Below, piece after piece: positions 40,673 through 60,919 of a DNA stretch of 64,000 nucleotides; within the stretch, counting starts at the first letter, position 1; each line of letters begins with the position of its first letter. The translations under genes were made by a program, and so were the position numbers. Origin of the DNA: Flavobacteriaceae bacterium (GTDB taxonomy: Bacteria > Bacteroidota > Bacteroidia > Flavobacteriales > Flavobacteriaceae); assembly GCA_014075215.1 (NCBI GenBank), contig CP046177.1, forward strand, positions 183,291 to 247,290, written 5' to 3'. The notes under the pieces are model-generated. The model was not told the DNA's origin, searched no databases, and saw only the letters and a list, made by a program, of their open reading frames with translations.

Positions 40673-40682
40673 TAGCAGAACA

Positions 40683-42179: not shown

Positions 42180-42189
42180 AAATGAAATC

Positions 42190-44223: not shown

Positions 44224-44247
44224 GGATAAGAATTTTAAAATACAATT

Positions 44248-45192: not shown

Positions 45193-45244
45193 TGAAATCT
45201 CTTAAATACTATACTTATAGAAAATCACATTTTAAGTCGAGACC

Positions 45245-47530
45245 ATGAAAAAAAGTAATTTACTACCCCTAACTTTCCTTATATTACTATTTGTAGTTTC
45301 ATGCGCTACGAAGATAGACCCGGAAACATACAAAAACCCAAACGCTCCTGTTGAAGATCGGGTAAATTCACTCCTGTCTGTAATGACATTAGAAGAAAAA
45401 GTGGGGCAAATGAACCAATACAATGGTTTTTGGGATTTAACAGGCCCGGCTCCCGGTAGTGGTGATGCAGCTAAAAAATATGAGCACCTGAAAAAAGGCC
45501 GGGTAGGATCAATGCTAAATGTAAGAGGGGTTCAAAATGTAAGAAAAGTACAAAAGATCGCGGTCGAAGAATCCGGGTTAGGCATTCCTTTGATCATAGG
45601 CTTTGATGTAATTCACGGGTATAAAACACAATCACCCATACCCTTGGCAGAATCTGCCAGTTGGGATTTGGAAGCTATTAAGAGATCTGCCAGGATGGCT
45701 GCTGTGGAGGCCTCTGCAGCAGGAATTAACTGGACATTTGCACCTATGATCGATATTTCCAGAGATGCCCGATGGGGGAGAGTCATGGAAGGAGCAGGGG
45801 AAGACACCTATTTGGGAAGTAAAATAGCTGCGGCCAGAGTACGAGGATTTCAGGGCAGTGACCTGAGTCGGCATAATACTATTGCAGCTTGTGCAAAACA
45901 TTTTGCAGCATACGGCTTTGCAGCATCAGGAAAAGATTATAATACTGCAGATATAGGAACTTCCACGCTGTACAACACTGTTTTCCCTCCGTTTCAGGCG
46001 GCTGTAAAGGCAGACGTAAAAACAGTTATGAACTCTTTTAATGAGATAAATGGAATTCCGGCTACCGGTGATTCGTTCCTGCAAAGAGATATTCTGAAAG
46101 GCAAATGGGGATTTGAAGGATTTGTTATTTCAGACTGGGGATCCTTGGCGGAAATGATAGCACATGGATATGCGGAAGACAAAGAACACGCTGCGGAACT
46201 GGCTGCTAAAGCAGGATCTGATATGGATATGGAATCTTATGCTTATGTAAATCATTTGGCAGGCCTTGTAAAAGAAGGAAAAGTAAAAGAACCTCTAATA
46301 GATGATGCAGTAAAAAGGATTTTGAAGGTTAAATTTGAATTAGGGCTTTTTGAAGACCCTTATAAGTACTGTGATGAAGCCAGGGAAAAGGAAGTTATCG
46401 GTAGTAAGCAAATACATGATGCTGCTTTGGATATGGCAAAAAAATCGATTGTTTTGCTTAAAAATGAAGGAAATATATTACCACTTAAAAAGAACGGACA
46501 GAAAATTGCACTTATAGGTGCGCTAGCTTCAGATAAGAACAGCCCTTTAGGAAATTGGCGATTGGCTGCAAAAGATGATTCTGCCGTTTCTGTCTTGGAA
46601 GGAATGCAATCCTATAAAGGAAATACTTTACTATATGCAGAAGGCGCTAAAGTATCTGTCGGTACTACCAATTTTTTTACTGAAGTAACCATTAATACTA
46701 CAGATACATCCGGATTTAAAAAGGCTATTTCTGTCGCTAAAAAAGCGGACGTAGTAGTGATGGTTTTAGGAGAAGTAGGTTTCCAGAGCGGAGAAGGAAG
46801 AAGCAGAGCCAATTTAGGATTACCAGGTGTTCAGCAAAAATTATTGGAAGTGGTTTATAAGGCAAATAAAAACATCGTGTTAGTATTAAATAACGGAAGA
46901 CCTTTGGCAATTAATTGGGCAGATGAAAATATTCCTGCTATTCTGGAAGCCTGGCAATTAGGTTCGCAAAGCGGTAATGCTATAGCTCAGGTACTATATG
47001 GCGACTATAACCCCAGTGGTAAATTGCCCATGAGTTTTCCAAGAGATGTAGGCCAGATGCCTCTTTATTATAATTATAAAAATACCGGAAGACCGGGACC
47101 TAAAAAAGAAGTTTTCTGGACACATTATCAAGATATGGAGAACACTCCTCTGTATCCTTTTGGATATGGCTTGAGTTATACTTCTTTTGAATATTCGAAT
47201 ATCAGTGTACAAAATAATTACACCTCTGATAAGACTGTTAAAATAACAGTTGATATAAAAAATACCGGTAAAACGGATGGTAAAGAGGTAGCTCAATTAT
47301 ATATTCGGGATCTTTTTGCAAGTGTTACAAGGCCGGTAAGAGAATTAAAAGGATTTGAGTTAATCCCTTTAAAAACAGGTGAAACAAAAAAAATCTCTTT
47401 TACCTTAACAGATGAAGAGCTTGGTTTTTATGATAATGAAGGTGTGTTTTTAGTAGAACCGGGAACATTTAAAGTATTTGTCGGAGGCAGCTCCTATGCA
47501 AGTTTAACATCTGAATTTGAATTAGAATGA
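45245..47530 (+). CDS. bglX: GH3 beta-glucosidase
   Basis: 761-aa ORF with a lipoprotein signal. Motifs are GQMNQ, GFDVIHG, SRDARWGR and GFVISDWG (nucleophile Asp), followed by a C-terminal Fn3-like domain. Confidence 0.85.
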   Translation: MKKSNLLPLTFLILLFVVSCATKIDPETYKNPNAPVEDRVNSLLSVMTLEEKVGQMNQYNGFWDLTGPAPGSGDAAKKYEHLKKGRVGSMLNVRGVQNVRKVQKIAVEESGLGIPLIIGFDVIHGYKTQSPIPLAESASWDLEAIKRSARMAAVEASAAGINWTFAPMIDISRDARWGRVMEGAGEDTYLGSKIAAARVRGFQGSDLSRHNTIAACAKHFAAYGFAASGKDYNTADIGTSTLYNTVFPPFQAAVKADVKTVMNSFNEINGIPATGDSFLQRDILKGKWGFEGFVISDWGSLAEMIAHGYAEDKEHAAELAAKAGSDMDMESYAYVNHLAGLVKEGKVKEPLIDDAVKRILKVKFELGLFEDPYKYCDEAREKEVIGSKQIHDAALDMAKKSIVLLKNEGNILPLKKNGQKIALIGALASDKNSPLGNWRLAAKDDSAVSVLEGMQSYKGNTLLYAEGAKVSVGTTNFFTEVTINTTDTSGFKKAISVAKKADVVVMVLGEVGFQSGEGRSRANLGLPGVQQKLLEVVYKANKNIVLVLNNGRPLAINWADENIPAILEAWQLGSQSGNAIAQVLYGDYNPSGKLPMSFPRDVGQMPLYYNYKNTGRPGPKKEVFWTHYQDMENTPLYPFGYGLSYTSFEYSNISVQNNYTSDKTVKITVDIKNTGKTDGKEVAQLYIRDLFASVTRPVRELKGFELIPLKTGETKKISFTLTDEELGFYDNEGVFLVEPGTFKVFVGGSSYASLTSEFELE

Positions 47531-48288
47531 AAAAATTAACTTCATTTATTACTATACTATTACCTTTCATTATTTCATGTAGTGAAAAAGAAGTAATTTT
47601 TGAAGATCATTTTTCTTCTCAAACTTTAGATGAATCTTCTTGGAACTACGATATAGGAGACGGCTGTCCAAATCTTTGTGGTTGGGGAAACAACGAACGT
47701 CAGTTATATACCAAAGAGAATGTATCAGTAAAAAATGGAAATTTGGTGATTACTGCAACTAAAAAAGATACAGCGTATTATTCAGGAAAGATTCACACAA
47801 AACAAAAAGTAGCATTTCAATATGGTATCGTAGAAGTAAGAGCAAAACTTCCCTTGGGAAGCGGTTTATGGCCGGCAATTTGGATGCTTGGAAACGATAT
47901 TGATGAGAACGGGTGGCCAAATTGCGGAGAAATTGATATTATGGAATACGTAGGTAAAGAGCCACATACCTTATATACTTCCTTACATACTCCGGATAGC
48001 TTTGGAAATACGATTAACTCCAAAAAGACAATAAAAGAAAATTTAGAAGAAGGATTTCACATATATAAAACAAATTGGACAAAAGATGAAATCTCATTTT
48101 ACTTGGATGACGAGCTAGTATATACCTTTTCTCCTGAAATAAAGAATATCAAAAATTGGCCTTTTAACAAACCTTTCTATATAGTTCTTAATTTAGCTGT
48201 TGGAGGGAATTTTGGAGGCCCGGAGGTAGATGATTCTATTTTTCCTCAAAAATTTATAATTGATTATGTAAAAGTGTATAAAAATTAA
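47527..48288 (+). CDS. GH16 endo-1,3-beta-glucanase (laminarinase-type)
   Basis: 253-aa ORF with a lipobox (LLPFIISC). It has the catalytic ExDxxE motif in GEIDIMEY and WPAIWMLG. Confidence 0.85.
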   Translation: MKKLTSFITILLPFIISCSEKEVIFEDHFSSQTLDESSWNYDIGDGCPNLCGWGNNERQLYTKENVSVKNGNLVITATKKDTAYYSGKIHTKQKVAFQYGIVEVRAKLPLGSGLWPAIWMLGNDIDENGWPNCGEIDIMEYVGKEPHTLYTSLHTPDSFGNTINSKKTIKENLEEGFHIYKTNWTKDEISFYLDDELVYTFSPEIKNIKNWPFNKPFYIVLNLAVGGNFGGPEVDDSIFPQKFIIDYVKVYKN

Positions 48289-48313
48289 TTCTAAAAACCA
48301 TTAAATTTAAATT

Positions 48314-49126
48314 ATGAAGAAAATTACTTATTTATTAATGTTATTAACGGTTGTAGGTTACGCACAGACAACACTTATTGATTTTGAGACAGCGACTACG
48401 TGGACCGATTTCGACGGAGGCGTTATGACAACCGAGACAAATCCTTACAATAATTCGGACAATAATTCGGCGAATGTGGGGAAGATGGTAAAAAATGCCG
48501 GTCAACCATGGGGAGGAAGTTGGACAGATTTAGGTTCACCTATAGATTTTTCAAGTAATAATGCAGTATCCGTAAAGGTGTATTCACCAAGAGTAGGAGC
48601 TAAATTATTATTTAAAGTAGAGAATGAAACAGACGGAGGAGTATTTTTCCAGCAAGAAGCTACTACTACTATGGCAAATGCCTGGGAAACATTGACATAT
48701 GATTTTTCGTCAGTTAATACTGCCAATAGCTATCAGAAAGTAGTGCTTATTTTTGATAATGGAACTGTCGGAGATGGAAGTGCCAATTTTACATTCTATG
48801 TTGATGATATTACCCTATACCTAGATAGTAGTGCACTTAGTCAGATAGATTTGCCAGTAAATTTTGAAGGAAGCACTACAAATTATACGGTAACTGATTT
48901 TGGAGGTAATGCATCTATGTTAGTAACGGATCCGGCTAATAGTTCAAATAATGTGATACAATCTGTTAAAACAACCGGAGCTGAGATTTGGGCAGGTACC
49001 ACAATAGGTACGCCTTCAGGTTTTGCTACGGCAATTCCTTTTACAGCTACAAGTACTAAAATGTCCGTAAAAGTGCGATCACCGTTAGCCTTTAGATTAG
49101 CAAATAGAAATAATTACTTAAAATAA
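48314..49126 (+). pseudogene. Secreted CBM-like two-domain protein, C-terminally truncated
   Basis: The domains are related to those of 42190..44223 (VSVKVYSPRVGAKLLFKVEN). The second domain breaks after MSVKVRSP at about 49084 and runs into unrelated sequence (LAFRLANRNNYLK*). Confidence 0.6.
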
Positions 49127-49211
49127 AAACATAATAGTTATGATGAAATTTCTTTTTTTGCTTCTTTTTTTCTTTGTTAATAACTCTTATTTTGTTGATA
49201 ACCAAAAACAC

Positions 49212-49283
49212 AAAAGAACGGAGTGAACTTTAGCGGCCAGCTAGCTTTTTAGAGCCATCCCCCGTATTAGTCTCCGTTCTTTT
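49212..49283 (+). ncRNA. Candidate IS110 5' non-coding (bridge-RNA-like) stem-loop
   Basis: A perfect 12-bp stem, AAAAGAACGGAG (49212-49223) with CTCCGTTCTTTT (49272-49283), encloses 48 nt. It lies about 95 nt upstream of the recombinase ATG. Confidence 0.4.
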
Positions 49284-49376
49284 TAAAAGTTACTTAGAAC
49301 CATATAGAATTTCAGTTTCTGCCCTTATTAAAGGTCTTAGTTTAAGTAACTATTATTAATATCTAATTACAAAATT

Positions 49377-50372
49377 ATGAAAACAAATGAAATTATCGGA
49401 ATCGATGTCAGTAAATTATTAATTGATGTTTGTATCTATTCTAAACAAATTGTTCAACAGTTTGAGAACAGTAAATCTGGATTTAAATTAATGCTAAAGT
49501 GGAGTTTTAAAAATTCGTCTTTCTCTAAAGAAGAAACCATGTTTGTATTTGAACATACAGGAATGTACTCTCATTTATTATCTGTGTCTTTAACTGAACA
49601 AAAATTATCTTTTTTCATAGCTTCTGGTTTAGAAATTAAAAGATCTATTGGTATTGCTCGTGGAAAGGATGACCAAATTGATGCCAAACGCATTGCTCTA
49701 TATGGGTATCGATTAAAAGAAGAACTTAAACCCAGTAAGCTACCTAAAAGAAGTATATTACAACTAAAAAGTCTCTTATCTTTAAGGACAAAACTTAACA
49801 AACAAAGAGCTGGTTTTAAAGTTACTTTGAAAGAACAAAAAAGAATTTATAAAGCAAAAGAGTATAAAATAATCTTTGACGTTCAACAAAAAATGATTGC
49901 AGAACTAACCAAACAAATACACAAGATTAATACTCAAATGCAAGCTATTATTGACCAAAATATAATGTTAAAAGAAACCTATAAACTTGTTACTAGTGTT
50001 AAAGGTATAGGAATGCAAACTGCTATAATGATGATTGTGTTTACTGACAATTTTTCAAAATTTGAAAACTGGAGAAAGTTTGCCTCTTATTGTGGTGTTG
50101 CTCCTTTTCCTTACCAATCTGGAACTAGTATTAAAGGACGTACAAAAGTCTCTCATTTGGCTAATAAAAAATTGAAAGCAATTATTAATATGTGCGCTAT
50201 TTCTGCTATACAACATAACCCAGAAATGAAATTATACTATCATAAAAGAATAAAACAAGGCAAAAGTAAAATGAGTACCGTTAACATTATTAGAAACAAA
50301 TTAATAGCAAGAGTGTTTGCCGTTGTCAAACGACAAACACCCTATGTAGATACTTTTAAATTTGCTGCATAA
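49377..50372 (+). CDS. IS110-family transposase (DEDD recombinase)
   Basis: 331-aa ORF with the N-terminal IGIDVSK motif. The C-terminal VKGIGMQTAIMMIVFT...FASYCGVAPFPYQSGTSIKGRTKVSHLANKKLK is the IS116/IS110/IS902 domain. Confidence 0.85.
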   Translation: MKTNEIIGIDVSKLLIDVCIYSKQIVQQFENSKSGFKLMLKWSFKNSSFSKEETMFVFEHTGMYSHLLSVSLTEQKLSFFIASGLEIKRSIGIARGKDDQIDAKRIALYGYRLKEELKPSKLPKRSILQLKSLLSLRTKLNKQRAGFKVTLKEQKRIYKAKEYKIIFDVQQKMIAELTKQIHKINTQMQAIIDQNIMLKETYKLVTSVKGIGMQTAIMMIVFTDNFSKFENWRKFASYCGVAPFPYQSGTSIKGRTKVSHLANKKLKAIINMCAISAIQHNPEMKLYYHKRIKQGKSKMSTVNIIRNKLIARVFAVVKRQTPYVDTFKFAA

Positions 50373-50493
50373 ATTAGTAAAAATAATATCTCAACTTTTA
50401 CTTGTTTTTATCATAGAATACCTTTAAGATCTCCGTATTGTACTGTTGTATGTTTTTCTAAATATTTCATACTACAAAAGTAAGTTTATTCTT

Positions 50494-51108
50494 TTAGTCT
50501 ACAAATTTCTGTTTTACTACTTCAAAATTCCACTTATTAAAACCTTGATAATATGCCTCAACCCAAAAGTAAGTAGGATTATTATAATCCTGTTGACAAT
50601 CAAACTCGCAATAGGTTTTTACCAAGAACCCAAAATTGCCTAAATACCGAAGTAAATATGGCTGATAGTTACCCTGACGAGTTACTTTACAATTTGGCTT
50701 TTGGTTAATCTCGTATTGAATAAATTTTTTAGTAGCCCTATATGCTGTTTGTCTCCAATAATTTGAGTATTCAAATTCTTCTAATGTAGGTTCTTTGTGC
50801 TTCTTATTATATGCCTTTGGGTCTTTCCATAATTCCAGTAAATCTAATTGAGGTTCTGTATTATTTTGAAAAGCTGAATTATCTGTAACATCTAATTCTT
50901 CACCTTCTTTCATTTGCTGTAATTGTTTAATTTTTTTTATCCAATCTTCATTGCTTTGATTTTGTGTTTTAGGTGTTTCAGTTATTGTGTTTTGTTCCTT
51001 TTCTAGTATTTGGTTGTGTTGTTGTTTAGGTTTATCATTACAACTTATAAGAAGTAATACTAGAGTAGTTGCTATTGATGTTATTTTAAGTGTTTTCACT
51101 AAGTACAT
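50494..51108 (-). CDS. Lipoprotein whose start region was rebuilt by an IS4 insertion
   Basis: 204-aa ORF: MYLV|KTLKITSIATTLVLLLISC. The first codons come from the IS4 terminal repeat. The original start is reconstructible as MKTLKIT.... Confidence 0.6.
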   Translation of the reverse strand: MYLVKTLKITSIATTLVLLLISCNDKPKQQHNQILEKEQNTITETPKTQNQSNEDWIKKIKQLQQMKEGEELDVTDNSAFQNNTEPQLDLLELWKDPKAYNKKHKEPTLEEFEYSNYWRQTAYRATKKFIQYEINQKPNCKVTRQGNYQPYLLRYLGNFGFLVKTYCEFDCQQDYNNPTYFWVEAYYQGFNKWNFEVVKQKFVD

Positions 51109-52193
51109 GACAAAAATTTAGTCAAGTTCATATTGTTTTGATTTACAGGGTTTAATAGCACAGAAGCGATATAATCTAATCCATATTTGAATATGCTTTT
51201 AGCCATTCTTCCATGCTTTTTTATTTTGATAGGCTTAATCTGATGTAAATATATACCAACTTTGTAACACCATACGAAAGCCATCATTACAAACAGTACT
51301 AATTTTTCAATACGCTTAATATCTTGCAGGTGTGTGTTTTCAATATCAAAGCCACTGGCTTTCATTGCTTTAAAACACATCTCTATCTGCCATCGTTCTT
51401 TGTATTGTTCAAAGGCCTTATCAGGAGCGTTGAACGATACAATGATTAAGAAATCAGGCTTTCCATTTTTTGGGTACAACTTGCATCCGGAAAGGAAACA
51501 AAGCTGACCATTAACACGTACAATTTTAGGATAATACACAAACTCATTGATCTTATGTGGATTAAACAAGTGAAATACTTTGATGGTTTTGTTCTTATCA
51601 GGAAGCTCTACCTTAAAGTTGTTTCGAATGCGGATATAATATTTGATTCCATTTGTATTCAAGAAATCCAACCAATGATTACCTACAAACTCTCTATCGG
51701 CTACAATGGATTTAATAACATCTTTGCCAAAAAGTCTTATGAAACGATTCACAAGATCAATACGCTCCTGACTGTTAGAGTTCCCTGGCTTATCTAACAT
51801 AGTAAATAACAATGGGAAGGCAACACCTTTATAGACAACTCCCAACTTAAAAATGTTGATGTTGGTCTGACCAAACTTCCAATTGGTCCTATCAATACTC
51901 AAGATCAATCCCTCTTGCTTAGGAAGGAGACTAAATATAAGACGAGCGATCAAATCTCCATCCAACGAATAATCAGCAATAAATCTTTGAATACGTCTGA
52001 GTGATGACTTCGAATCTACTGAGGTCTCAAAAGCGTTGGCTACCTTTTCAAAGGTAACTGTCTGTACCTTACAGAGGGCGATAATGAAATGTGATATGAG
52101 TTTGATTCTTGCCAAATTGATCTTACCTTGGAAATGAGAACTTAAAACTGAATTTAATTCACTACTTTTAGTGGAAGCATTGGTTTTTTTCAT
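51099..52193 (-). CDS. IS4-family DDE transposase
   Basis: 364-aa ORF with SIDRTNWKFG, VADREFVG and YKERWQIEMCFKAMK (YREK-type). The stop codon lies in the terminal repeat. Confidence 0.85.
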   Translation of the reverse strand: MKKTNASTKSSELNSVLSSHFQGKINLARIKLISHFIIALCKVQTVTFEKVANAFETSVDSKSSLRRIQRFIADYSLDGDLIARLIFSLLPKQEGLILSIDRTNWKFGQTNINIFKLGVVYKGVAFPLLFTMLDKPGNSNSQERIDLVNRFIRLFGKDVIKSIVADREFVGNHWLDFLNTNGIKYYIRIRNNFKVELPDKNKTIKVFHLFNPHKINEFVYYPKIVRVNGQLCFLSGCKLYPKNGKPDFLIIVSFNAPDKAFEQYKERWQIEMCFKAMKASGFDIENTHLQDIKRIEKLVLFVMMAFVWCYKVGIYLHQIKPIKIKKHGRMAKSIFKYGLDYIASVLLNPVNQNNMNLTKFLSCT

Positions 52194-52306
52194 TAGAAAA
52201 ATGAGTGATGTTATTCTTCTAATATACTGAAAATCAATGCTTTATTTTAATTATTTAACATTTAATTTACTGATAATCAATTAATTATATTTTTTGTCAT
52301 GTACTA
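51099..52306 (-). mobile_element. IS4-family element (about 1208 bp)
   Basis: Inverted ends CTAAGTACATGACAAAAA... and ...TTTTTGTCATGTACTA. The 10-11 bp duplication AAGTGTTTTCA lies at 51088-51098 and 52307-52317. Confidence 0.8.
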
Positions 52307-52317
52307 AAGTGTTTTCA

Positions 52318-52770
52318 TTATTCTAATTCTTGTATTCCGTAAAAAACTAATGTTTGCCCATTTTTAAACTCATAACCAATACTACCAACAGTATCAACCC
52401 ATATCTGAAAACAGATAGAATTATCGATGTCAAATTCCATTCCTTTTAACCCTAATAAACTTTCCGTTATTTTGGACTTCTTTATTTTAAATTCAAAGGT
52501 ATTCCAACTCCTATTTTTAGTTTTGGATTTATAAGAAATCAGGTTTTTGTTGAAGTCGAATGTATGATAACTTACTTCATCATTTGTCTGTAATATATCA
52601 ACCCCTTTTTCGAGGTCATTACTATTACTAACAAATTTAAAAATAGGTTTCTCATTACTTCCCGTCTTGTTTTTTGACGATGAGGTCTTATTGGTTTGAG
52701 TGCATCCAATTAGTGTAGTAAGGATAATAATACCAAAGACTATAATCTTTTTTGTATTAGTGTGGTTCAT
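52318..52770 (-). CDS. Lipoprotein (150 aa), originally stop/start-overlapped (TAATG) with the downstream lipoprotein gene
   Basis: MNHTNTKKIIVFGIIILTTLIGC has a lipobox. I recognise no family. Confidence 0.6.
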   Translation of the reverse strand: MNHTNTKKIIVFGIIILTTLIGCTQTNKTSSSKNKTGSNEKPIFKFVSNSNDLEKGVDILQTNDEVSYHTFDFNKNLISYKSKTKNRSWNTFEFKIKKSKITESLLGLKGMEFDIDNSICFQIWVDTVGSIGYEFKNGQTLVFYGIQELE

Positions 52771-52789
52771 TTGCTTTTCTCATTAATTT

Positions 52790-52990
52790 CAACCCAGTAC
52801 CTAAGTTGAGTGATTAACAAAAAATAAGGCATGGTACTAAAGTCCACTCCTTGGACGAGGTACTGGTATACCTATCAAGTAAAGCGAACTAAGCCCATGC
52901 CCATAAGGAACACGGGCATTAGTTCATCCTTTCTACTTGATTGATTGAAAATTATCAGTTTTCGTCCAAGTTATTAGATGACTAATGCCT
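52790..52990. ncRNA. Candidate structured non-coding element (strand unresolved)
   Basis: There is no ORF here. Several 8-13 bp complementary pairs are present: 52794-52801/52859-52866, 52849-52857/52962-52970, 52874-52881/52934-52941 and 52915-52928/52977-52989. There are also local hairpins at 52842-52856 and 52897-52919, some mutually exclusive with the long-range pairs. Confidence 0.4.
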
Positions 52991-53076
52991 ATCTGCGTAT
53001 TTTATGTAAAGAACGTTTATATCGTTATTCTATATCTTTTGTTTTCTGATTGTATTCCAAATATAATGGATTTCGA

Positions 53077-53622
53077 TTAATCTAAATCTGTATTAAGTAA
53101 TTTTAATAGTTCCTTTTTTTCATCATCAGTAAAATTATTTCTTATGTATGTGCTAAATGAACTTGGAGTTTTTTCAAGTTTTATTCGTTGCCGTTTAAAC
53201 CCTCCTTCAATCATTGCTTTGTACACAGATAATTCTTTAGACATGACTTTTTCAAATAAATCTAATCGATGTTTTTCTAACACTTCTAGACTTCTTTGTT
53301 TATCCGTCTTTCTTACCCTTTTTATGTCTATATCTAATTCTAATTGTACACTTTTTTGTCTTCCAAGTTCTAATTCTACTTCTGTAAACCCTGAACAAAT
53401 TTCTTCTATATCTTTAAAATCCATTTGCAAGCCCCAAGGTCTTACTGTTTCTACAAAGTCAGGAAAATAATTAAACTCTTTAGGTTCTAATTCATTTGGA
53501 GCAGGGTCTCTATTTTTCCAGTCTTCTGATTTAATAATATTTAATATCAATCTTGGTATATGGGTTTCCCTAAATTTGTGTTCCTTTAATTCTTCTTGAA
53601 CTTGTTCTATTAAATTTTCCAT
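53077..53622 (-). CDS. hypothetical protein (181 aa, acidic/helical), coupled to the HNH-helicase gene
   Basis: Its ATG at 53622 lies 1 nt after the helicase TAA (CAA TAA A ATG). The C-terminal half (LEVLEKHRLDLFEKVMSKELSVYKAMIEGGFKRQR) recalls HTH tails of ParB/phage DNA-binding proteins (weak recall). Confidence 0.6.
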   Translation of the reverse strand: MENLIEQVQEELKEHKFRETHIPRLILNIIKSEDWKNRDPAPNELEPKEFNYFPDFVETVRPWGLQMDFKDIEEICSGFTEVELELGRQKSVQLELDIDIKRVRKTDKQRSLEVLEKHRLDLFEKVMSKELSVYKAMIEGGFKRQRIKLEKTPSSFSTYIRNNFTDDEKKELLKLLNTDLD

Positions 53623-53623
53623 T

Positions 53624-55507
53624 TTATTGGCTTTTTAATTTCTCGTATAACTCTTTAGATAGTTCTAATTTTTTCTTGTATTCATCTAAAGTAAAAATAA
53701 GGCTATTTTTTTTACCTACAGATTTATTTAATTTTGAATGTATGTCTCTATACTCTAAACCAAAATCAAAATGAATACGCCCAACCATTTTATGGACTAA
53801 TTTTTTATATCTGTCTTTTTCATCCGTTATTGTTTCTATTTTATGAGGTCGTCTTTCCTCTAATGAAGGTTGCTGACCTGCAATATTTAAAATATCTTTC
53901 CACATGCTTAATACCTTATCTTTTGTAACATCGTATTTAGTAGCTAATATTGTAGCTTCTACATCTTCAGTTTGAGAGAAAAGTGCACCTCCATATACAT
54001 TTCCACTATTTTCACTTGTAGAGCTTAAAACTATATCTTCTATGCTAATTTGAGTTGGCTTTCCACCAATACCCCCTATATGCTCTTCTTCAACGGAATC
54101 TATTTCATATCGAATATGTCTTAATTCTTCTTCAATAAATGTAGCATTGTCAATCAATGGTTTATATTCTGGAATGTACATATAACATACATCTGAATTA
54201 TTTTTAAAATGTACTGGATTTCTAACACCTCGCCCCATAACTTGAACAAACCTAACTCTTGTAGTAACATTTGAAGCATAAACAATAGCCCTTATTCTAG
54301 AAATATCTACTCCCTCAGAAACCATATTAATTGAAATAATCCACGTTTTATAACTTTCTTTAAAACGCTCTATTTTTCTATTGGAATCTTTATCATCACT
54401 TGTAACCAATTCAGCAAAATCAACCCCGTATTTATTATATATTCTCTCGTATAATGCTTTAGCATCTGCTATGGAATTACAAACAATCAAACCTGCATAG
54501 TTTTCATTGCGGTTGGTATTAATCTCATTTAACTGTTGATTAGCCTTTTCAAATGTTTGATATACATAACAATCTCCCTCTGGGCGTACTTTAATTGCAT
54601 TATTATAAATATTTTTTATTTCAGATGCAGGGTCTTCATTTTTTAATCTTTCATAACCATTTACAGTTTCAACTGTTGACGAATTTCGTTGAAATATTAC
54701 AGGACAGCAGACTTTATCTTTAACACTTTCAGCATATCCATAAGAATAATCATATTGTAATTCGTATTTTCTATCGCCAATTTTTTTATATGTAACAAAA
54801 GGTATTTCTGCATTATCATTTCTGTCTGGAGTACCACTCAATAGTAACACAAAACCTGCTTCGTCTCCAATTTCTCTAATTGCATTGCCCCAAGATTTAT
54901 CGTCACCTGCATGATGAACCTCATCAACTATTAGAACAACTCTTTGATTTACATATTTTTTTAGAATTTCTAGGTTTAATGGGTTAAGACTTTGAAAGGT
55001 AATACTAATGCCATTACAATCTCTTGGCCACGCGTACTTAAATTGATAACCATGGTCTACTCTGATGTTAAAAAATTTCTGAAAAGTAACACTCCAATTC
55101 TTTTTAATATTTTCTGTAGGACTAATAACAATTACAGAGTCAAACTCCCCAGATTTTAATAGATAATTAAAAGTATAGCTTGAAAACATAGTCTTTCCCG
55201 AGCCAACTCCAGCAACTGCTAAAAAAGAATTTCCGCCTCCTTTTCGTACCTTAATTAATTTTGCAAAACAATCTTGTTGCCATTTTCTTAATTCAATTTC
55301 TTTTTGATTTCTCATTTTATTTGATTTTAATAAATTACACTTTGGGCATAAGGCTTGTCCATTAGAAATGTGTGTAATACCGTATTTAGAAAATGGAGTA
55401 ATGTGATCAGCATGCCAATTTGTTGGTAAAGAAGTACCACAATTTTGACATAAACCCTCAGAAAGAACAAAGAGAGCTTTTTTTTGCTTTGAATTAAAAT
55501 ATCTCAT
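53624..55507 (-). CDS. HNH endonuclease::SF2 (DEAD/DEAH, ResIII-like) helicase fusion protein
   Basis: 627-aa ORF. The HNH is CQNCG...HADHITPFSKYG...NGQALCPKCNLLKSN. Helicase motifs are I AGVGSGKT, II LIVDEVHH, III LLSGTP, V SINMVSEGVDISRI and VI QVMGRGVR. A C-terminal region of about 170 aa is of unknown function. Confidence 0.8.
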   Translation of the reverse strand: MRYFNSKQKKALFVLSEGLCQNCGTSLPTNWHADHITPFSKYGITHISNGQALCPKCNLLKSNKMRNQKEIELRKWQQDCFAKLIKVRKGGGNSFLAVAGVGSGKTMFSSYTFNYLLKSGEFDSVIVISPTENIKKNWSVTFQKFFNIRVDHGYQFKYAWPRDCNGISITFQSLNPLNLEILKKYVNQRVVLIVDEVHHAGDDKSWGNAIREIGDEAGFVLLLSGTPDRNDNAEIPFVTYKKIGDRKYELQYDYSYGYAESVKDKVCCPVIFQRNSSTVETVNGYERLKNEDPASEIKNIYNNAIKVRPEGDCYVYQTFEKANQQLNEINTNRNENYAGLIVCNSIADAKALYERIYNKYGVDFAELVTSDDKDSNRKIERFKESYKTWIISINMVSEGVDISRIRAIVYASNVTTRVRFVQVMGRGVRNPVHFKNNSDVCYMYIPEYKPLIDNATFIEEELRHIRYEIDSVEEEHIGGIGGKPTQISIEDIVLSSTSENSGNVYGGALFSQTEDVEATILATKYDVTKDKVLSMWKDILNIAGQQPSLEERRPHKIETITDEKDRYKKLVHKMVGRIHFDFGLEYRDIHSKLNKSVGKKNSLIFTLDEYKKKLELSKELYEKLKSQ

Positions 55508-55595
55508 ATTTACTAACCGCCTTTCACTTTTTTAGTGACCATCAGCCTTATGGGCTAAAGATAGTAAAAATTATTGAATATCAGATGATTCGTTT

Positions 55596-55787
55596 TATCG
55601 CATACCAGGGCAGAATCATACTTTGTGATACAAAGTAAGTTTTCCAACAAAATCCGCTAATTTTTGTAAATTTTCAAAAATCTCAAAGATTTTTATTAGT
55701 GAAATAGCATGTTTTAGACATTTAGAAGAGAAAAATTTGTGTATTTGTAGTAAAAATAAAAGTATGATTTTGCCCTGTATCGCATAC
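55596..55787. promoter_or_regulatory. Candidate replication origin / regulatory region
   Basis: A 19-bp inverted repeat (18/19) joins CAGGGCAGAATCATACTTT (55606-55624) and AAAGTATGATTTTGCCCTG (55759-55777). Each arm is abutted by the direct 10-mer TATCGCATAC (55596-55605 and 55778-55787). The repeats enclose about 134 bp of AT-rich DNA and an adjacent hairpin, CTTTGT GAT ACAAAG. Confidence 0.4.
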
Positions 55788-55868
55788 GTAAAAATTATCG
55801 TATTTAAAAAGGCACTTAGTGTATATAGTAAAACACAACTCTCAAAAATTACTGGGGGACAGATAAAT

Positions 55869-56822
55869 CTAAAAAATTAAATCTTTTACAGACCTAATTT
55901 TAATATCTAATTCCCTTACTAGATTCTTTTCTAGTGTATTTTTACTGACTTCTTTTAATAATTCCTTTACGACAGATTTCATTTTACTACGTTTACTTCT
56001 AGGGTTTATAACATCAAAATCTAAATCGGATATAATATTTATTACCTTATCAAATCCCAGTTTATCTATACCATGATATGAAAGGTACTGATACAGTCCA
56101 CTATGTCTATACAATAAATGAACTGGGTCTTTACCTATTGATAATTTATTAACCTTATGATAATCTTTTAACCAAAGTTCCTTCAACTTATTTTGAACAG
56201 TATCGTCAAATAAAGATTTTAAATATACTTGCTCTAAATTAAATCGCTGCTTTAAATTCTTTTTAAGCCTTATTTCGTAGCGTAGAATGTTTTTATTATG
56301 ATATTCGATAGGTATTGAGTAAAACACCTCTTTATTCCCATTTTTTAACTCTTTTATTTTATCATAAAAAATTAATGATTTTGAAGCCCATTTTGTAAAA
56401 AATGTGACAGAATCTTTATAACGATTAGTTTCAAGTCGAGGAAAAGAAATTAAAGAACTAATATATTCATGAACTGAATAATCTACCTCAATATTATATC
56501 CATAATCAACTCTAGTCAATATTGCCTTTTTCATGTTCACATTAATATTGTCTGAAAGCATATTAACAGCTTCTTTAATTGTCTTTCTGTTTAAATGAAG
56601 AAGATTATTACCAAAGTGAAATTTAGACAAAGAACCATTAAAATAAAGTTTATAAGGTTTGTAGTTTTCATTAAGTATAAAAGTAATCTTCATATTTGAA
56701 AGATTTAGTGAAGCTGTATAACCACTATCAGATGTAGATATCTTGGCTTCGCTAATTAACTCCTTAAAATTTGAGTTCTCTTTTGGTTTTATGTCTAAAT
56801 ACCCCTTTATTGTATCAATCAT
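55869..56822 (-). CDS. Putative rolling-circle replication initiator (phage/plasmid gene II/X-like)
   Basis: 317-aa ORF. The N-terminal MIDTIKGYL and the central FYDKIKEL...NILRYEIRLKK pattern match my recall of the Phage_CRI (gene II/X) family. This is not verified by a search. Confidence 0.5.
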   Translation of the reverse strand: MIDTIKGYLDIKPKENSNFKELISEAKISTSDSGYTASLNLSNMKITFILNENYKPYKLYFNGSLSKFHFGNNLLHLNRKTIKEAVNMLSDNINVNMKKAILTRVDYGYNIEVDYSVHEYISSLISFPRLETNRYKDSVTFFTKWASKSLIFYDKIKELKNGNKEVFYSIPIEYHNKNILRYEIRLKKNLKQRFNLEQVYLKSLFDDTVQNKLKELWLKDYHKVNKLSIGKDPVHLLYRHSGLYQYLSYHGIDKLGFDKVINIISDLDFDVINPRSKRSKMKSVVKELLKEVSKNTLEKNLVRELDIKIRSVKDLIF

Positions 56823-56885
56823 AAGTGTTTCCTTTTTATGGAAATTAGTATAGCTTATTATACCGAGTTATATATTCAATAATTT

Positions 56886-57194
56886 TCATAACGATTTGTT
56901 TTTAAGGTTCAACAAATTGTTAGCCACCATTGTTTCAATATCGTCTGTAGATTGAATACGGTTTTTCAAAATGAAATTCTCTAAATCTCTACGCTTAATA
57001 AAAATGAGTTTTCCTGAAGGTTTGGAATAAGGAATTTGATTAGAAGTAATCAATTTTTGCATATAAGAGTAACTTACTCCTATTACAAAAGATGCTTCTT
57101 TAATTGTATAGATGCGTTTACGATAGAGATGACTTTTTTTGATTTCTCTTTTGAGGCTTCTTATCTCACGAACTAGTTGTGCAATTCTTGCCAT
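56886..57194 (-). CDS. Excisionase-type helix-turn-helix DNA-binding protein
   Basis: 102-aa ORF. YTIKEASFVIGVSYSYMQKLITSNQIPYSKPSGKLIFIKRRDLENF is MerR/Xis-like. It lies directly downstream of the integrase gene. Confidence 0.65.
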   Translation of the reverse strand: MARIAQLVREIRSLKREIKKSHLYRKRIYTIKEASFVIGVSYSYMQKLITSNQIPYSKPSGKLIFIKRRDLENFILKNRIQSTDDIETMVANNLLNLKNKSL

Positions 57195-57259
57195 AATGAA
57201 TAATTTAAAAGCTATTATGGCACAAATCTCTTACATAATAGAAGTTTAATTGATAAGTA

Positions 57260-59047
57260 TTAAGGTAGTGGGATAGTAGTACTTATTTCATCTATTATGT
57301 CATTTGTAATGTATTCAAATGCTTTGTGCTTATCTTCACTTAAAGCTTTACTCAGTTGGTTATTTTTAAATGGTTCTCCATTTTTATTGATAAAATGATG
57401 AATTACTAATTGATGTCTAAATCGTTTAGTTTCATTATTTAGATAGTTGTTTTCAATCAATAAATCGATTAAATTCGTTATCTGAAACTCAGTTCCGAGC
57501 CATTGAATTTTTTTATCCCATTGGTTCTCAAAATGAAATTTAAAATCATCATTTTTTTCATCAATTAGTTTGTTTTTAATTAACACTTTGTATAGGAAAT
57601 TGATAAATTCTTTTTTGTTTAAATCAGGGTTAAGTAAAAAGGATTTTTTTCTATTTATTCTTAATGGATTAGTGGTATCATTATTATTTTCAATTTTTGA
57701 AAGTTTTGTATCAATAATTCTTTTCAACTTAATTAACCTCAACTGAAAATCATAATACTTTTCATCTTTATGTTCGATTTTAAGCAGGAGTTCAATTATA
57801 TCATTTTCATATTGTTCGAAATACTCATCATAAAACCATTCACCAGAAATTCTATCTCTATGACCACCACCATAGAAATCATCTAACACCAAATAACTAA
57901 AATGAGTTTCAAAATTGTGTAGTATTCTATCCTCAAAATATTCAACCTTTTTCTTTACTTCTTGTAGTTCTATAATATAAAATTCTAAATTTACCATACT
58001 ATTAACGGCTTTTTGTTTTTCCTCGTCAATAACTTTTGCATACACTAAAGTACTTTTTATATCTTTATGCCCCATAAGTTTTGAGATAGTAAAAATATTA
58101 ACTCCAGCAGTAACTAGTAATGTTGCAAAAGTGTGCCTTGCACAATGAAAATGTACTTTTTTATCAATCCCAGTCAGTTTAATAAGTTTCTTAACTGTCC
58201 TATTCATTGAACTAATATGGTCTGAAAGATTGAATACAAATTCTTCATTGTGAGTTTGTTTGTTTAAAATATTCCGAGCGTTATTATTTAAAGGTATATA
58301 AACCGTATTCTTAGTTTTATTTTGTATTAATTGTATTCTGTTATCCTTAATGTTAGACCATTTCAAATTTTTAATATCCGATGCCCTAAGCCCACTATAA
58401 CAACTAAATAAAAAAGCATTCTTTGAATCGTTGTCCCAAAAATCGGTAGAAATTATTTTTTGTATTTCATCCTTTGTTAAAAATACAATTTCGGTTTCTT
58501 TCTTTTTAGGTCTTTCAATAAATCTAATAGGATTTTCAACAATGATTTTTTCTTTAATAGCTTGATTAAGTGTTGCATTGATTTTATTGGTATAAGTAAC
58601 AATAGAGTTATTTGCCAACTCTTTACTTTTAAGGTATTCAATGAAATTTTCAATCCAACTAACCGAAATGTTTTCAAAAGTCAATTTTTTGCCTTGAAAT
58701 TTAATAAGGTGTTTTAAGGTGTTATCCCAAGCTGTTTTTGTCTTTTCACTTTTCTTGTTTCCTAACTTTTCAAAATAGAGTATGAAATTTGCCTTTTGTA
58801 ATTGCCTTGATACTAAACCATTTTTTGCATTACCCAATTCAATTTCCAATTTTGCTCTTATATTTTCAACTAACCGTTCTTTTTGTTTTCTAACCTCTTT
58901 GGTGTCGGTTGTATTAAAGGTTACTTCTTTTATGGTTTCCCTTACTCGTTTTCCGTTTAAGGTATAATCTAATTGTTTTCTATAAGGTCTATTCTTACGA
59001 GAGTTATTTTTATTCCCAATATACTTTGTTCTTAAATTTACTGACAT
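57260..59047 (-). CDS. Tyrosine site-specific integrase with a 243-aa C-terminal extension
   Basis: 595-aa ORF. The catalytic set is readable: R221 (GLRASD), H301-x-x-R304 (HCARH), H327 (MGHKD) and Y336 (LVYAKV). The core ends at about residue 352. Residues 353-595 (57260..57991) form an additional domain of unknown family. Confidence 0.8.
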   Translation of the reverse strand: MSVNLRTKYIGNKNNSRKNRPYRKQLDYTLNGKRVRETIKEVTFNTTDTKEVRKQKERLVENIRAKLEIELGNAKNGLVSRQLQKANFILYFEKLGNKKSEKTKTAWDNTLKHLIKFQGKKLTFENISVSWIENFIEYLKSKELANNSIVTYTNKINATLNQAIKEKIIVENPIRFIERPKKKETEIVFLTKDEIQKIISTDFWDNDSKNAFLFSCYSGLRASDIKNLKWSNIKDNRIQLIQNKTKNTVYIPLNNNARNILNKQTHNEEFVFNLSDHISSMNRTVKKLIKLTGIDKKVHFHCARHTFATLLVTAGVNIFTISKLMGHKDIKSTLVYAKVIDEEKQKAVNSMVNLEFYIIELQEVKKKVEYFEDRILHNFETHFSYLVLDDFYGGGHRDRISGEWFYDEYFEQYENDIIELLLKIEHKDEKYYDFQLRLIKLKRIIDTKLSKIENNNDTTNPLRINRKKSFLLNPDLNKKEFINFLYKVLIKNKLIDEKNDDFKFHFENQWDKKIQWLGTEFQITNLIDLLIENNYLNNETKRFRHQLVIHHFINKNGEPFKNNQLSKALSEDKHKAFEYITNDIIDEISTTIPLP

Positions 59048-59141
59048 ATCATTAGGTTTAGTTTTCTAAATTTAAAAGATAAATTCTACTCAAGTGACAG
59101 ATACGTGACACTTTTTTGTAACAATCTGCTATAATATGCAA

Positions 59142-59168
59142 CAAAAATAGGTTGCCGAATGACAACCT
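59142..59168 (-). terminator. Rho-independent terminator downstream of lysS
   Basis: On the minus strand it reads AGGTTG TCATTCGG CAACCT followed by ATTTTTG (plus-strand stems 59149-59154 and 59163-59168). Confidence 0.5.
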
Positions 59169-59230
59169 ATAGTAAGTATGAAGTGAGTACTTATTTAATA
59201 CTCATCTTTAAAGTTTATAATATTAAAACA

Positions 59231-60919
59231 CTAAATAACCTCTACAATTAAGCCATTTTCTGTTTTGGAAACTTTAGCTAAGTTATTTTTAGTCAGTTCT
59301 TTAATTGCTTTATCCCATTTCTTATTAGATAATTCAGCTTTAACTTTAATGTCACTTAAAGCACTGCCAGAATGTTCTTTTAAAATGCCTAATATCACTT
59401 TTGCTTCATCACTAATTGCCACTTGTTTTTTCTCTGGTCTCATTTGCGGAAAAAAAAGCACTTCCTGAATAGACTGATTATTCGTTAAAAACATCACCAA
59501 CCGATCCATACCAATTCCCATTCCGGAAGTTGGCGGCATTCCATATTCCAAAGCCCGTAGAAAATCATCGTCAATAAATTTGGTAGCCTCATTATCGCCT
59601 TTAGCAGCCAGTTGCAGTTGAGCTTCAAAACGTTCTCTCTGATCTATAGGATCATTTAACTCGGAATAAGCATTGGCAATTTCTTTTCCGCATACCATCA
59701 GCTCAAAACGCTCTGTTAACTCGGGATGATCTCTATGCTCTTTACATAAAGGGCTCATTTCTTTTGGGTAATCTATAATAAAAGTGGGTTGGATATAATT
59801 TTTTTCACATTTTTCACCAAAAATCTCATCAATTAATTTCCCTTTGCCCATCGTATCATCTACCTCGATGTTCATAGATTTTGTAGCTTCGCGGATTTCA
59901 TCTTCCGTTTTTCCGTTAATATCAAAACCGGTGAAATCCTTAATGGCATCTGCCATCGTAACCCTAGCGTAAGGCGCTTTAAAATCTATTTCATGTGCTC
60001 CATAAGTAGCTTTTGAAGTTCCATTTACTGCAATTGCACAATGCTCTAATAATTGCTCGGCAAAATTCATCATCCAGTTATAATCCTTATACGCCACGTA
60101 AATTTCCATTGCCGTAAACTCAGGATTATGTGTCTTATCCATTCCTTCATTTCTAAAGTTTTTAGAAAATTCATACACGCCATCAAATCCACCGACAATT
60201 AACCTTTTCAAATAGAGCTCATTGGCAATTCTCATATACAGCGGGATTCCTAAAGCGTTGTGATGTGTTACAAAAGGTTTTGCTGCTGCACCACCTGCAA
60301 TAGGTTGTAAAACAGGAGTTTCTACCTCAAAATAACCGGCATTATTGAAAAAAGTACGCATTGCATTAAACAGCTTGGTTCTTTTAATAAAAACCTCTTT
60401 TACATGTGGGTTCACTACCAAATCCGCATACCGTTGCCTGTAACGAAGTTCGGTATCTGTAAAAGCATCAAATACAACACCGTCTTTTTCTTTTGGAAAA
60501 GGCAATGGTTTTAATGCTTTACTTAATAAGGTAAAATTTTTAACCAGTACTGTTTTCTCTCCGACTTTAGTGGTAAACAATTCTCCTTCAATACCCACAA
60601 AATCCCCTAGGTCTAATAGTTTTTTAAAAACTTCATTGTATTTGGATTTATCTTCCCCCGGACAAATTTCATCACGATTAAAATAAACCTGAATCCTGCC
60701 TTTACTGTCCTGCAACTGTGCAAAAGAAGCTTTTCCCTGAATATTAATAGCCATTAACCTTCCTGCAATTACAACGGAGTTTCCTTCTTTAAAAGTTGTT
60801 TTTATGGCTTCGGAATTTGTAGTTACCGGGTAAATGCCTGCCGGATACGGATTAATTCCTAAAGCTCTAAGCCTGGAAAGTTTTTTTCTTCTGACAATTT
60901 CTTGCTCCGATAACTGCAT
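59231..60919 (-). CDS. lysS: lysine--tRNA ligase (class II)
   Basis: 562-aa ORF with an OB anticodon-binding domain. It has class II motifs (FRNEGMDKTHNPEFTAME, GIGMDRLVMFLT) and a C-terminal extension of about 60 aa. Confidence 0.95.
   Translation of the reverse strand: MQLSEQEIVRRKKLSRLRALGINPYPAGIYPVTTNSEAIKTTFKEGNSVVIAGRLMAINIQGKASFAQLQDSKGRIQVYFNRDEICPGEDKSKYNEVFKKLLDLGDFVGIEGELFTTKVGEKTVLVKNFTLLSKALKPLPFPKEKDGVVFDAFTDTELRYRQRYADLVVNPHVKEVFIKRTKLFNAMRTFFNNAGYFEVETPVLQPIAGGAAAKPFVTHHNALGIPLYMRIANELYLKRLIVGGFDGVYEFSKNFRNEGMDKTHNPEFTAMEIYVAYKDYNWMMNFAEQLLEHCAIAVNGTSKATYGAHEIDFKAPYARVTMADAIKDFTGFDINGKTEDEIREATKSMNIEVDDTMGKGKLIDEIFGEKCEKNYIQPTFIIDYPKEMSPLCKEHRDHPELTERFELMVCGKEIANAYSELNDPIDQRERFEAQLQLAAKGDNEATKFIDDDFLRALEYGMPPTSGMGIGMDRLVMFLTNNQSIQEVLFFPQMRPEKKQVAISDEAKVILGILKEHSGSALSDIKVKAELSNKKWDKAIKELTKNNLAKVSKTENGLIVEVI

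Follow-up and report, generated by a model that had tools for sequence, protein, structure and literature searches.

Actinomycete integrative and conjugative elements (AICEs) such as pSAM2 have an int–xis–rep organisation with a rolling-circle initiator, integrate into the 3′-end of a gene, span ~9–24 kb and replicate in a plasmid-like manner after excision (PMC3218068). A tyrosine integrase and an excisionase are likewise found together with a nickase of the Rep_trans superfamily, able to serve both transfer and rolling-circle replication, on integrative and conjugative elements (ICEs) and integrative mobilizable elements (IMEs) of Firmicutes (Tn916, ICEBs1 and those related to ICESt3), and some streptococcal ICEs target the 3′-end of lysS (PMC4701971). 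Here we analysed a 64,000 bp stretch of a Flavobacteriaceae bacterium genome (GCA_014075215.1, contig CP046177.1, 183,291 bp–247,290 bp), referred to below as the window and used for all coordinates, in which an integrase (Int), an excisionase-type protein (Xis) and a rolling-circle initiator (Rep) are encoded beside lysS. We consider it probable (roughly 0.7) that the locus represents a family of 5.7–13.4 kb Flavobacteriales integrative elements targeting the 3′-end of lysS, in a copy that is truncated and probably immobilised.

These lysS elements resemble AICEs in their int–xis–rep organisation with a rolling-circle initiator, in the use of the 3′-end of a conserved gene and in their direct-repeat attachment (att) sites. 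However, the AICE initiator RepSA is of the HUH class (φX174/pC194-type) whereas the lysS-element Rep is of the Rep_trans/Phage_CRI type, and AICEs commonly target tRNA genes in Actinomycetales hosts. AICEs also carry an FtsK/SpoIIIE-type Tra protein for transfer of double-stranded DNA, which is absent from the lysS elements (no PF01580 match); with this and a Rep of a different class, the locus does not qualify as an AICE. Compared to the Firmicute elements, the lysS elements have no conjugation module or coupling protein, their Rep belongs to the Phage_CRI branch and their hosts are Bacteroidota. The att repeats of the streptococcal ICEs are the last 13–17 bp of lysS, whereas the core of the lysS elements is found ~76 codons upstream, with the element supplying a new tail. 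Phage satellites (P4-like elements, phage-inducible chromosomal islands (PICIs) and phage-inducible chromosomal minimalist islands (PICMIs)) are also small and encode an integrase, an AlpA/Xis-like helix-turn-helix (HTH) protein, their own replication initiator and a defence locus, but what defines them is induction by a helper phage together with packaging functions, and none of this was detectable in the lysS elements. The gene II protein and RepC/RepD of the pT181 family share with Rep the PF05144 family, the RxD, YxKxxE and xRxE motifs and the Rep_trans fold, which resembles TATA-binding protein (TBP), and their origin lies in non-coding DNA beside rep, as does the candidate here. Unlike in those systems, Rep is encoded on a chromosomally integrated element with an integrase, and there are no morphogenesis or plasmid copy-control genes.

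In the ocean, Flavobacteriia play a major part in the degradation of algal polysaccharides; the class also includes fish pathogens, and its small mobile elements are poorly catalogued. The lysS element family appears to be undescribed: the literature searched contained no description of it and nothing linking lysS, an integrase and Flavobacteria, and no relatives of Rep were found at tblastn sensitivity in PLSDB plasmids, INPHARED phages or IMG/VR viral contigs. An earlier first-pass annotation of the window had likewise assigned this architecture to no established element class of Flavobacteriia, and its proposal that the element integrates site-specifically and carries both a rolling-circle-type Rep and an origin-like sequence was supported by the analysis below.

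The lysS target and the ends of the element

The window copy was compared with eight relatives for which flanking DNA was available: Flavobacterium macrobrachii (L003), Winogradskyella (L004), a Flavobacteriales metagenome-assembled genome (L005), Flavicella sediminum (L006), a metagenome contig (L009), Olleya (L012), Chryseobacterium (L026) and Zobellia (L027). These nine elements, from nine genomes or metagenomes, all shared the gene order lysS, Int, ORF235, Xis (HTH_17) and Rep, and the complete ones were 5.7–13.4 kb in size and sat directly 3′ of lysS.

Each of the eight complete relatives was flanked by a direct repeat of 29 bp, TTYTTYCCNCAAATGMGNCCNGARAARAA, located inside lysS. The core block TTCTTCCCNCAAATGNGACCNGAGAAAAAA was 27–30 bp, was identical or nearly identical between copies and encoded FFPQMRPEKK, and it was here that the duplication of lysS abruptly began. 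Exactly two core copies flanked the element in 8/8 complete relatives; the window held one, so that paired attL and attR repeats were a property of the family and were lacking from the window. A second, partial LysS C-terminus (from ~residue 487) was encoded 5.7–13.4 kb downstream in seven relatives, these being the complete relatives with a full lysS in the fetched locus; in L009 the second core was present and the contig ended just beyond it. Read from these alignments, a duplicated core with a displaced native tail is the hallmark expected when an element integrates at the 3′-end of a gene. The lysS side of the window copy comprised the following features:

59427–59455, minus strand: attL crossover core TTTTTTCCGCAAATGAGACCAGAGAAAAA, within lysS, encoding FFPQMRPEKK
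59231–59426, minus strand: replacement lysS 3′-end supplied by the element, ~65 codons after the core plus the stop codon
59147–59170, minus strand: element-borne intrinsic terminator for lysS, the sole terminator-like site in 52700–59500
59094–59110, minus strand: tandem TGTCAC–N5–TGTCAC, candidate arm-type integrase sites or operator in the int-proximal arm

As the single core lies inside lysS, the last ~76 codons of the gene, its terminator and the TGTCAC sites are element DNA, and host lysS stays intact because the element supplies a substitute tail and terminator. For annotation this means that the last 76 lysS codons and the terminator in this organism are foreign in origin. The GC content was 0.24–0.34 over ~49000–59450 and 0.35–0.39 in the flanks, placing the island 7–10 points under its surroundings, and it dropped from 0.37–0.39 to 0.28 at the point where the core meets the replacement tail.

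The proximal (replacement) and native lysS tails shared 70–88% nucleotide identity in the four relatives measured, with the two tails of Flavicella 88% identical. Between Winogradskyella and Olleya, the sole informative pair in the proximal/distal comparison, the proximal LysS tails (L004, 6360-6587; L012, 7407-7634) were 75% identical and the native tails 55%. This comparison indicates that the replacement tail moves along with the element.

The arm between the lysS stop codon and int was strongly conserved across genera. Its terminator hairpin was retained in the relatives through compensatory changes or complete replacement of the stem, and the TGTCAC–N5–TGTCAC tandem was invariant in 8/8 aligned elements. 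The tandem, together with an upstream GCA..AT.ATAGCAGAT block, recurred in 8/8 relatives, where it preceded the distal core by 66–78 bp. TGTCAC sites on both arms would meet the requirement of an arm-binding tyrosine integrase at attP; the window Int had a weak match to Arm-DNA-bind_2, and Arm-DNA-bind_5 was found in a distant relative, L025. Precise ends (the 29 bp core, the arm-type sites and the replacement tail for an essential gene) and a compact five-gene core make this family easy to work with.

No second core or lysS tail was found in the 64 kb window by pattern search with three mismatches, tblastn or short-word blastn. The chance expectation for the 29 bp core in the window was 0. 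A generic repeat search over 47500–59400 returned only AT-rich pairs at chance level; the core itself was recognised solely by way of the relatives. The first-pass annotation had looked by eye for att repeats and seen none. This was right in that a second copy is absent here, but an att core does exist, inside lysS. Its lysS-side boundary at the lysS terminator has therefore to be moved to the core at 59427–59455. At the other end it had stopped at 52771, before what it called IS-disrupted lipoprotein genes; these proved to be core genes in 9/9 elements, and the extent of ~6.3 kb has to be enlarged: the element, which is truncated, stretches from 59455 to 50427 at least.

A tRNA target was ruled out, as the window has no tRNA genes. 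The Rfam family cow-rumen-3 (RF03083) gave a weak full-length match at 59078-59206 on the minus strand (24.5 bits, E = 0.04, gathering score 86.7), which was judged to be a terminator-driven chance match since it was absent from the equivalent arms of six relatives. Separately, a Flavo-1 RNA (RF01705, 77.7 bits, above the gathering score) was located just 5′ of lysS in Flavobacterium macrobrachii (L003, 5721-5804).

Core genes, Rep and the variable slot

Clustering of the open reading frames (ORFs) of the nine elements identified Int, ORF235, Xis, Rep, a lipoprotein and the lysS tail as common, while essentially all ORFs between the conserved block after rep and the lipoprotein were element-specific. 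The common features in the window, with the DNA downstream of rep, were:

57980–59047, minus strand: tyrosine integrase proper, codons 1–356 of a 595 amino acid ORF (PF00589, PF13102)
57260–57979, minus strand: ORF235, core gene of 235 amino acids, fused in frame to int and stand-alone in relatives
56886–57194, minus strand: excisionase-type HTH_17 protein (Xis/AlpA-like), 102 amino acids
55869–56822, minus strand: Rep, rolling-circle initiator of the Phage_CRI/Rep_trans superfamily, 317 amino acids
55775–55860, minus strand: conserved non-coding block of ~85 bp directly after the rep stop codon, candidate nick site and double-strand origin or origin of transfer (oriT)
55508–55774, no strand assigned: remaining spacer between Rep and the cargo, with an inverted partial copy of the conserved block (inverted-repeat comparison)
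52318–52770, minus strand: core lipoprotein, domain A (lipo150), 66% identical to a 149 amino acid protein of the Olleya element
50494–51108, minus strand: core lipoprotein, Cys-rich domain B (lipo204), with conserved NCK…YCEFDC motifs

All five minus-strand ORFs of the first-pass annotation were present where it had put them, and its naming of Int, Xis, Rep and an HNH–superfamily 2 (SF2) helicase held against Pfam and TIGR01764; the fifth, a 181 amino acid ORF, matched no family. The integrase, which it had read as one gene at 57260–59047, did contain tyrosine integrase domains but proved to be a fusion of a 356 amino acid Int with a 235 amino acid gene. Reading codon by codon, the int stop codon TAA had become TAT (57977–57979) and the orf235 start codon ATG had become ATA (57971–57973), so that two point changes account for the 595 amino acid ORF. 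The two genes were apart in all six relatives read, with a stop–NNN–ATG arrangement in five and also as separate genes in L009. Int had both the catalytic and the core-binding SAM-like domain of a tyrosine recombinase (PF00589, 9e-26; PF13102, Phage_int_SAM_5, 5e-20), matched the phrog_1 integrase family (7e-61) and was 61–67% identical to the 356 amino acid integrases of L003–L006. ORF235 homologues formed 30 clusters, all stand-alone, of 226–244 amino acids and with no Pfam domain; an assignment to YfzA was rejected, the Pfam match being sub-threshold only. The AlphaFold2 (AF2) model of ORF235 (predicted local distance difference test score, pLDDT, 85) had no structural match in the PDB or BFVD. 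Xis was found in 9/9 elements and matched PF12728 (4e-8) and the TIGR01764 excisionase family (1e-8).

The lipoprotein family was also present in 9/9 elements, encoded either as a single protein with both domains or by a pair of genes. Lipo204 was 41–64% identical to the distal genes of L003–L006 and 52% identical to a 160 amino acid protein of Olleya, in which the lipo150 and lipo204 counterparts are adjacent.

Rep matched PF05144 over profile positions 1–225 of 232 (E = 1.5e-13, 51.4 bits against a cut-off of 21.7). In an alignment of 16 sequences R104, D106, Y153, K155, R181 and E183 were invariant and E158 was conserved at ≥90%. Motifs I (RxD), III (YxKxxE) and IV (W/LxRxE) are listed for Rep_trans/Phage_CRI proteins (PMC5714925), and R104-x-D106, Y153-x-K155-x-x-E158 and R181-x-E183 of Rep correspond to these; no motif N′ or II was identified in Rep with confidence. 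The AF2 model of Rep (pLDDT 81.9, predicted template modelling score 0.73) had the TBP-like pseudo-dimer fold of Rep_trans proteins, its best Foldseek matches being RepDE (4CWE/4CWC) and a Geobacillus Rep (4CIJ) at a probability of 0.99–1.00, followed by TBP folds, with TM-scores of only 0.36–0.46. Identity to the solved structures was ~10–14%, and the Rep profile found no match in the PDB by sequence. The gene II homology on which the first-pass annotation had staked its Rep assignment was thus borne out by PF05144, the motifs and the fold, and homology lends good support to replication by a rolling-circle mechanism.

The conserved block directly after rep, with its core AGTGCCTTTTT at 55806–55816 and the candidate nick region AGTGCCTTTTTAAATAC, was alignable across five elements of different genera, and the DNA beyond it was unrelated between elements. 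The AGTGCCTTTTT motif followed rep in 7/9 elements. The whole Rep–helicase spacer (55508–55868) was, as described in the first pass, an AT-rich region of about 360 bp with inverted repeats: it measured 361 bp, folded as single-stranded DNA with z = −4.0 and contained long imperfect inverted repeats (55571–55624 with 55758–55810, and 55506–55524 with 55808–55826). The inverted partial copy of the conserved block was not present in the relatives, and a second inverted copy of the motif occurred in the window and in Flavicella (L006) only. The inverted partial copy of the block could have been left behind by an exchange of cargo, or it could act as a single-strand origin.

Close homologues of Rep formed 57 clusters at 39–59% identity, and the named ones were all from Flavobacteriales; an exhaustive search with the Rep profile gave 349 clusters at E ≤ 1e-30. 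In L025 (4800-8930) an Int, a 261 amino acid ORF, an HTH_17 protein, a 166 amino acid ORF and a Rep were encoded beside a SpoU methylase gene. The L025 Rep was distant, scoring 163 bits to the Rep profile. The presence of this module at a SpoU methylase gene extends it beyond the lysS clade, and on the sequences compared sister families appear to use different target genes. A Rep_trans/gene II-type initiator is linked to an integrase over a much wider set of Bacteroidota elements, and the int/att and rep/ori units are a candidate chassis on which to build tools for genetically recalcitrant hosts.

Between the conserved block and the lipoprotein the window encodes two cargo genes:

53624–55507, minus strand: HNH endonuclease fused to an SF2 (ResIII/DEAD) helicase, 627 amino acids
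53077–53622, minus strand: Orf181, 181 amino acid helicase partner, directly after the helicase

The cargo of the same position differed between the elements:

Window: HNH-helicase and Orf181
Flavobacterium macrobrachii (L003): PADLOC candidate system PDC-M36A/B
Winogradskyella (L004): 1406 amino acid STAND NTPase
Olleya (L012): proteins with ABC-3C CTD9/MC5 domains
Zobellia (L027): EcoRI-type methylase and GmrSD_N/HNH
Metagenome contig (L009): DUF8370 and Peptidase_M78

Judged by the predicted products, there is one slot with different genes in every element, often of defence type. The first-pass annotation had grouped Rep, the helicase and the origin as a replication module, which is contradicted by the replacement of the helicase and Orf181 in every relative. 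The HNH-helicase was a singleton among the nine elements. It contained HNH (1.7e-9), ResIII (7e-19) and Helicase_C domains, its profile search of the PDB returned the generic helicase match 7CLG only, and more than 2,500 homologues with a constant architecture of ~620 amino acids were found across phyla. PADLOC 2.0 gave partial matches only, to PbeA (4e-20, residues 61–231), a type IV restriction endonuclease and Cas3, and the pair was not covered at full length by any of its curated defence-system models. No Pfam, PHROG, PADLOC, NCBIfam or PDB match was found for Orf181. However, an Orf181 homologue followed the helicase in three unrelated contexts (L020, 10001-12463; L023, 9829-12253; L024, 10001-12464), at 38–48% identity and with 42 invariant columns. 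None of these had Rep or lysS nearby: the pair lay among housekeeping genes, in a region rich in HTH and transposase genes, and beside a serine recombinase. As the pair recurs without Rep, it is a portable cassette and not the replicative helicase of the element. Most likely it is a putative nuclease-helicase defence module, and it is a candidate new defence system missed by the defence-system models. A single slot that swaps defence-type cargo between genera would be a handy marker for new Bacteroidota defence systems.

Proposed mechanism and rival explanations

In the proposed mechanism Int, aided by Xis, would recombine the two cores, excising a circle and restoring the native lysS. Rep, acting as a Rep_trans/gene II-type tyrosine nickase, would nick at the AGTGCCTTTTT block, and the nick would prime rolling-circle replication of the circle by the host polymerase and helicase. 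A single-stranded or multimeric product might then be passed on and re-integrate at lysS of a new host. The slot carries accessory genes, often of defence type, and the helicase and Orf181 stand outside replication.

Several points weigh against this interpretation. Onward passage would depend on a putative helper encoded elsewhere. No excised circle, conspecific empty site or attP junction was observed, and all metagenome contigs of the window population break at insertion sequence (IS) edges. The conserved block is a candidate nick site and origin from its position and conservation; the divergent L009 and L027 lacked an exact AGTGCCTTTTT motif, and RNAalifold found no shared hairpin in the block (zero pairs). 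The proximal and distal lysS tails formed no separate groups overall (means 44% and 48%). PADLOC 2.0 has no model for the helicase/Orf181 pair, whose defence role is putative. Finally, each core ORF of the window copy has stayed open, so that it is the missing attR, and not gene decay, that would account for a loss of function.

The alternative that survives best, which we regard as possible but tentative, is an IME in which Rep would act mainly as a relaxase (of MOBT-like type, as in Tn916 and ICEBs1) and the conserved block would be an oriT. The nicked strand would leave through the type IV secretion system (T4SS) of a co-resident Bacteroidota conjugative element, with the lipoprotein serving in surface or entry exclusion. 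Rep_trans-family proteins do serve as conjugative relaxases and drive rolling-circle replication of ICEs (PMC5714925), and the best structural matches of the Rep model were Rep_trans proteins. The streptococcal precedent for the lysS 3′-end (PMC4701971), the exported lipoprotein among the core genes and the lack of any packaging or capsid gene (0/9 elements) also fit. A Rep_trans-type nickase and a conserved cis site were present. The search for canonical MOB relaxases was negative, and genes for a coupling protein, an accessory relaxosome component or a T4SS were seen neither within nor next to any of the nine elements. In the literature searched, relaxases of the Phage_CRI or Rep_trans type were not reported from Bacteroidota, and the exclusion role is a guess, the lipoprotein having no homologue of known function. 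The IME reading is compatible with the lysS integrative element described above and does not exclude it, as replication and transfer may share one nick.

A more speculative reading, which we think unlikely, is that these are helper-dependent 'hitcher' elements of a type new to Bacteroidota. Single-stranded or concatemeric copies made by the gene II-type Rep would be exported in vesicles or in the capsids of a helper phage, and the elements would combine a swappable defence slot with a superinfection-blocking surface lipoprotein. If true, this would be the first phage-satellite-like family described in Flavobacteriia, and the HNH-helicase and Orf181 would be a new two-gene anti-phage system.

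A phage satellite proper (PICI/P4/PICMI-like), in which excision would be induced by a helper phage, amplification would be due to Rep and the DNA would be packaged into helper capsids, had been suggested in the first pass and is improbable. The small size, the int–alpA-like–rep layout, integration at the 3′-end of a conserved gene and the single variable slot rich in defence-type genes, a counterpart of satellite defence hotspots, all recall satellites. However, genes for a terminase small subunit, capsid-size redirection, head completion, cos/pac-associated functions or an anti-repressor-type protein were found in 0/9 elements, and no helper-sensing gene was found either, which leaves the satellite logic of packaging, capsid redirection and helper sensing unsupported. 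In the window element no packaging or capsid-hijack match was found in Pfam, PHROGs or NCBIfam; the first-pass observation that capsid, tail, conjugation and relaxase genes are lacking was confirmed, with no matches to any of these, MOB relaxases included. PHROGs returned nothing for Rep, Orf181 or lipo150, in a scan that did not take in lipo204, and relatives of Rep were absent from IMG/VR viral contigs and GenBank phages. Satellite replication proteins are primase-helicases or Rep-helicases, not gene II-type nickases. The minimum size of 5.7 kb is also far under typical tailed-phage headfuls, though concatemers could compensate.

It is very unlikely that the locus is the remnant of an integrated filamentous (inovirus-like) or other single-stranded DNA phage, whose replication module would survive as the gene II-type Rep and the origin and whose exported proteins would be former virion or assembly parts. 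Rep does match a Pfam family whose profile derives from gene II proteins of filamentous phages, small exported proteins are conserved, and filamentous phage genomes are usually of a size that overlaps the 5.7–13 kb of the elements. Neither a Zot/pI-type morphogenesis ATPase nor a set of short coat-like transmembrane proteins nor a secretin was conserved among the nine elements, however, and the window likewise had no pI/Zot-like ATPase or small coat proteins. The conserved genes other than Rep had no PHROG or BFVD match, and a gene set intact in ≥8 genera favours a functional element over parallel decay.

A vertically inherited, domesticated block with no mobility in the family is hardly credible: the window lacks attR and every contig of its population is similarly arranged, but the clean direct repeats and displaced native lysS tails in relatives of different genera contradict at family level the conserved block without an empty site that the first pass had named as its refutation, and the unrelated cargo, differing sizes, low GC content and the closer Winogradskyella/Olleya proximal tails point the same way.

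Insertion sequences and decay of the window copy

Two insertion sequences lie at the distal end of the window copy:

51099–52306, minus strand: IS4-family insertion sequence, with a DDE_Tnp_1 transposase (PF01609) at 51099–52193
49127–50426, plus strand: IS110-family element, with a transposase (PF01548, PF02371) at 49377–50372; the left end is tentative

The IS4 element had perfect 15 bp terminal inverted repeats (51102–51116 and 52291–52305) and was flanked by an 11 bp target duplication, TGAAAACACTT, at 51088–51098 and 52307–52317. It was inserted at the TAATG stop/start overlap of lipo150 and lipo204, and the lipo204 ORF as called starts at an ATG within the IS4 end.

The IS110 element, whose right end was derived by contig-end arithmetic, occupies the expected place of the distal genes, the distal arm sites, the attR core and the native lysS tail. 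Homologues of the distal 268 and 87 amino acid genes of the family were found nowhere within the 64 kb window; with them the distal ~1.3 kb and attR have been lost at IS110. The window copy, with attL only, is probably immobile and unable to excise: excision, which the first-pass annotation had envisaged, is unlikely because attR and the distal arm sites are missing. Exact-protein look-ups of LysS, Rep, a flanking glycoside hydrolase family 16 (GH16) gene product and lipo204 found no conspecific empty site or intact distal junction, and all metagenome contigs of the window population ended at IS edges, so that no other arrangement is on record.

The transposase gene of IS110 was preceded by a ~250 bp non-coding leader with no Rfam match; in some IS110 elements bridge or guide RNAs lie in such a leader. 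The flank on the IS110 side (37643-49126) is a polysaccharide utilisation locus encoding SusC/SusD-like proteins, GH3 and GH16. It also encodes two paralogous secreted proteins with repeated modules of ~150 amino acids, a 712 amino acid ORF (42085–44223) and a 270 amino acid ORF (48314–49126). The last ~13 codons of the latter, which adjoins IS110, may be derived from the insertion sequence.

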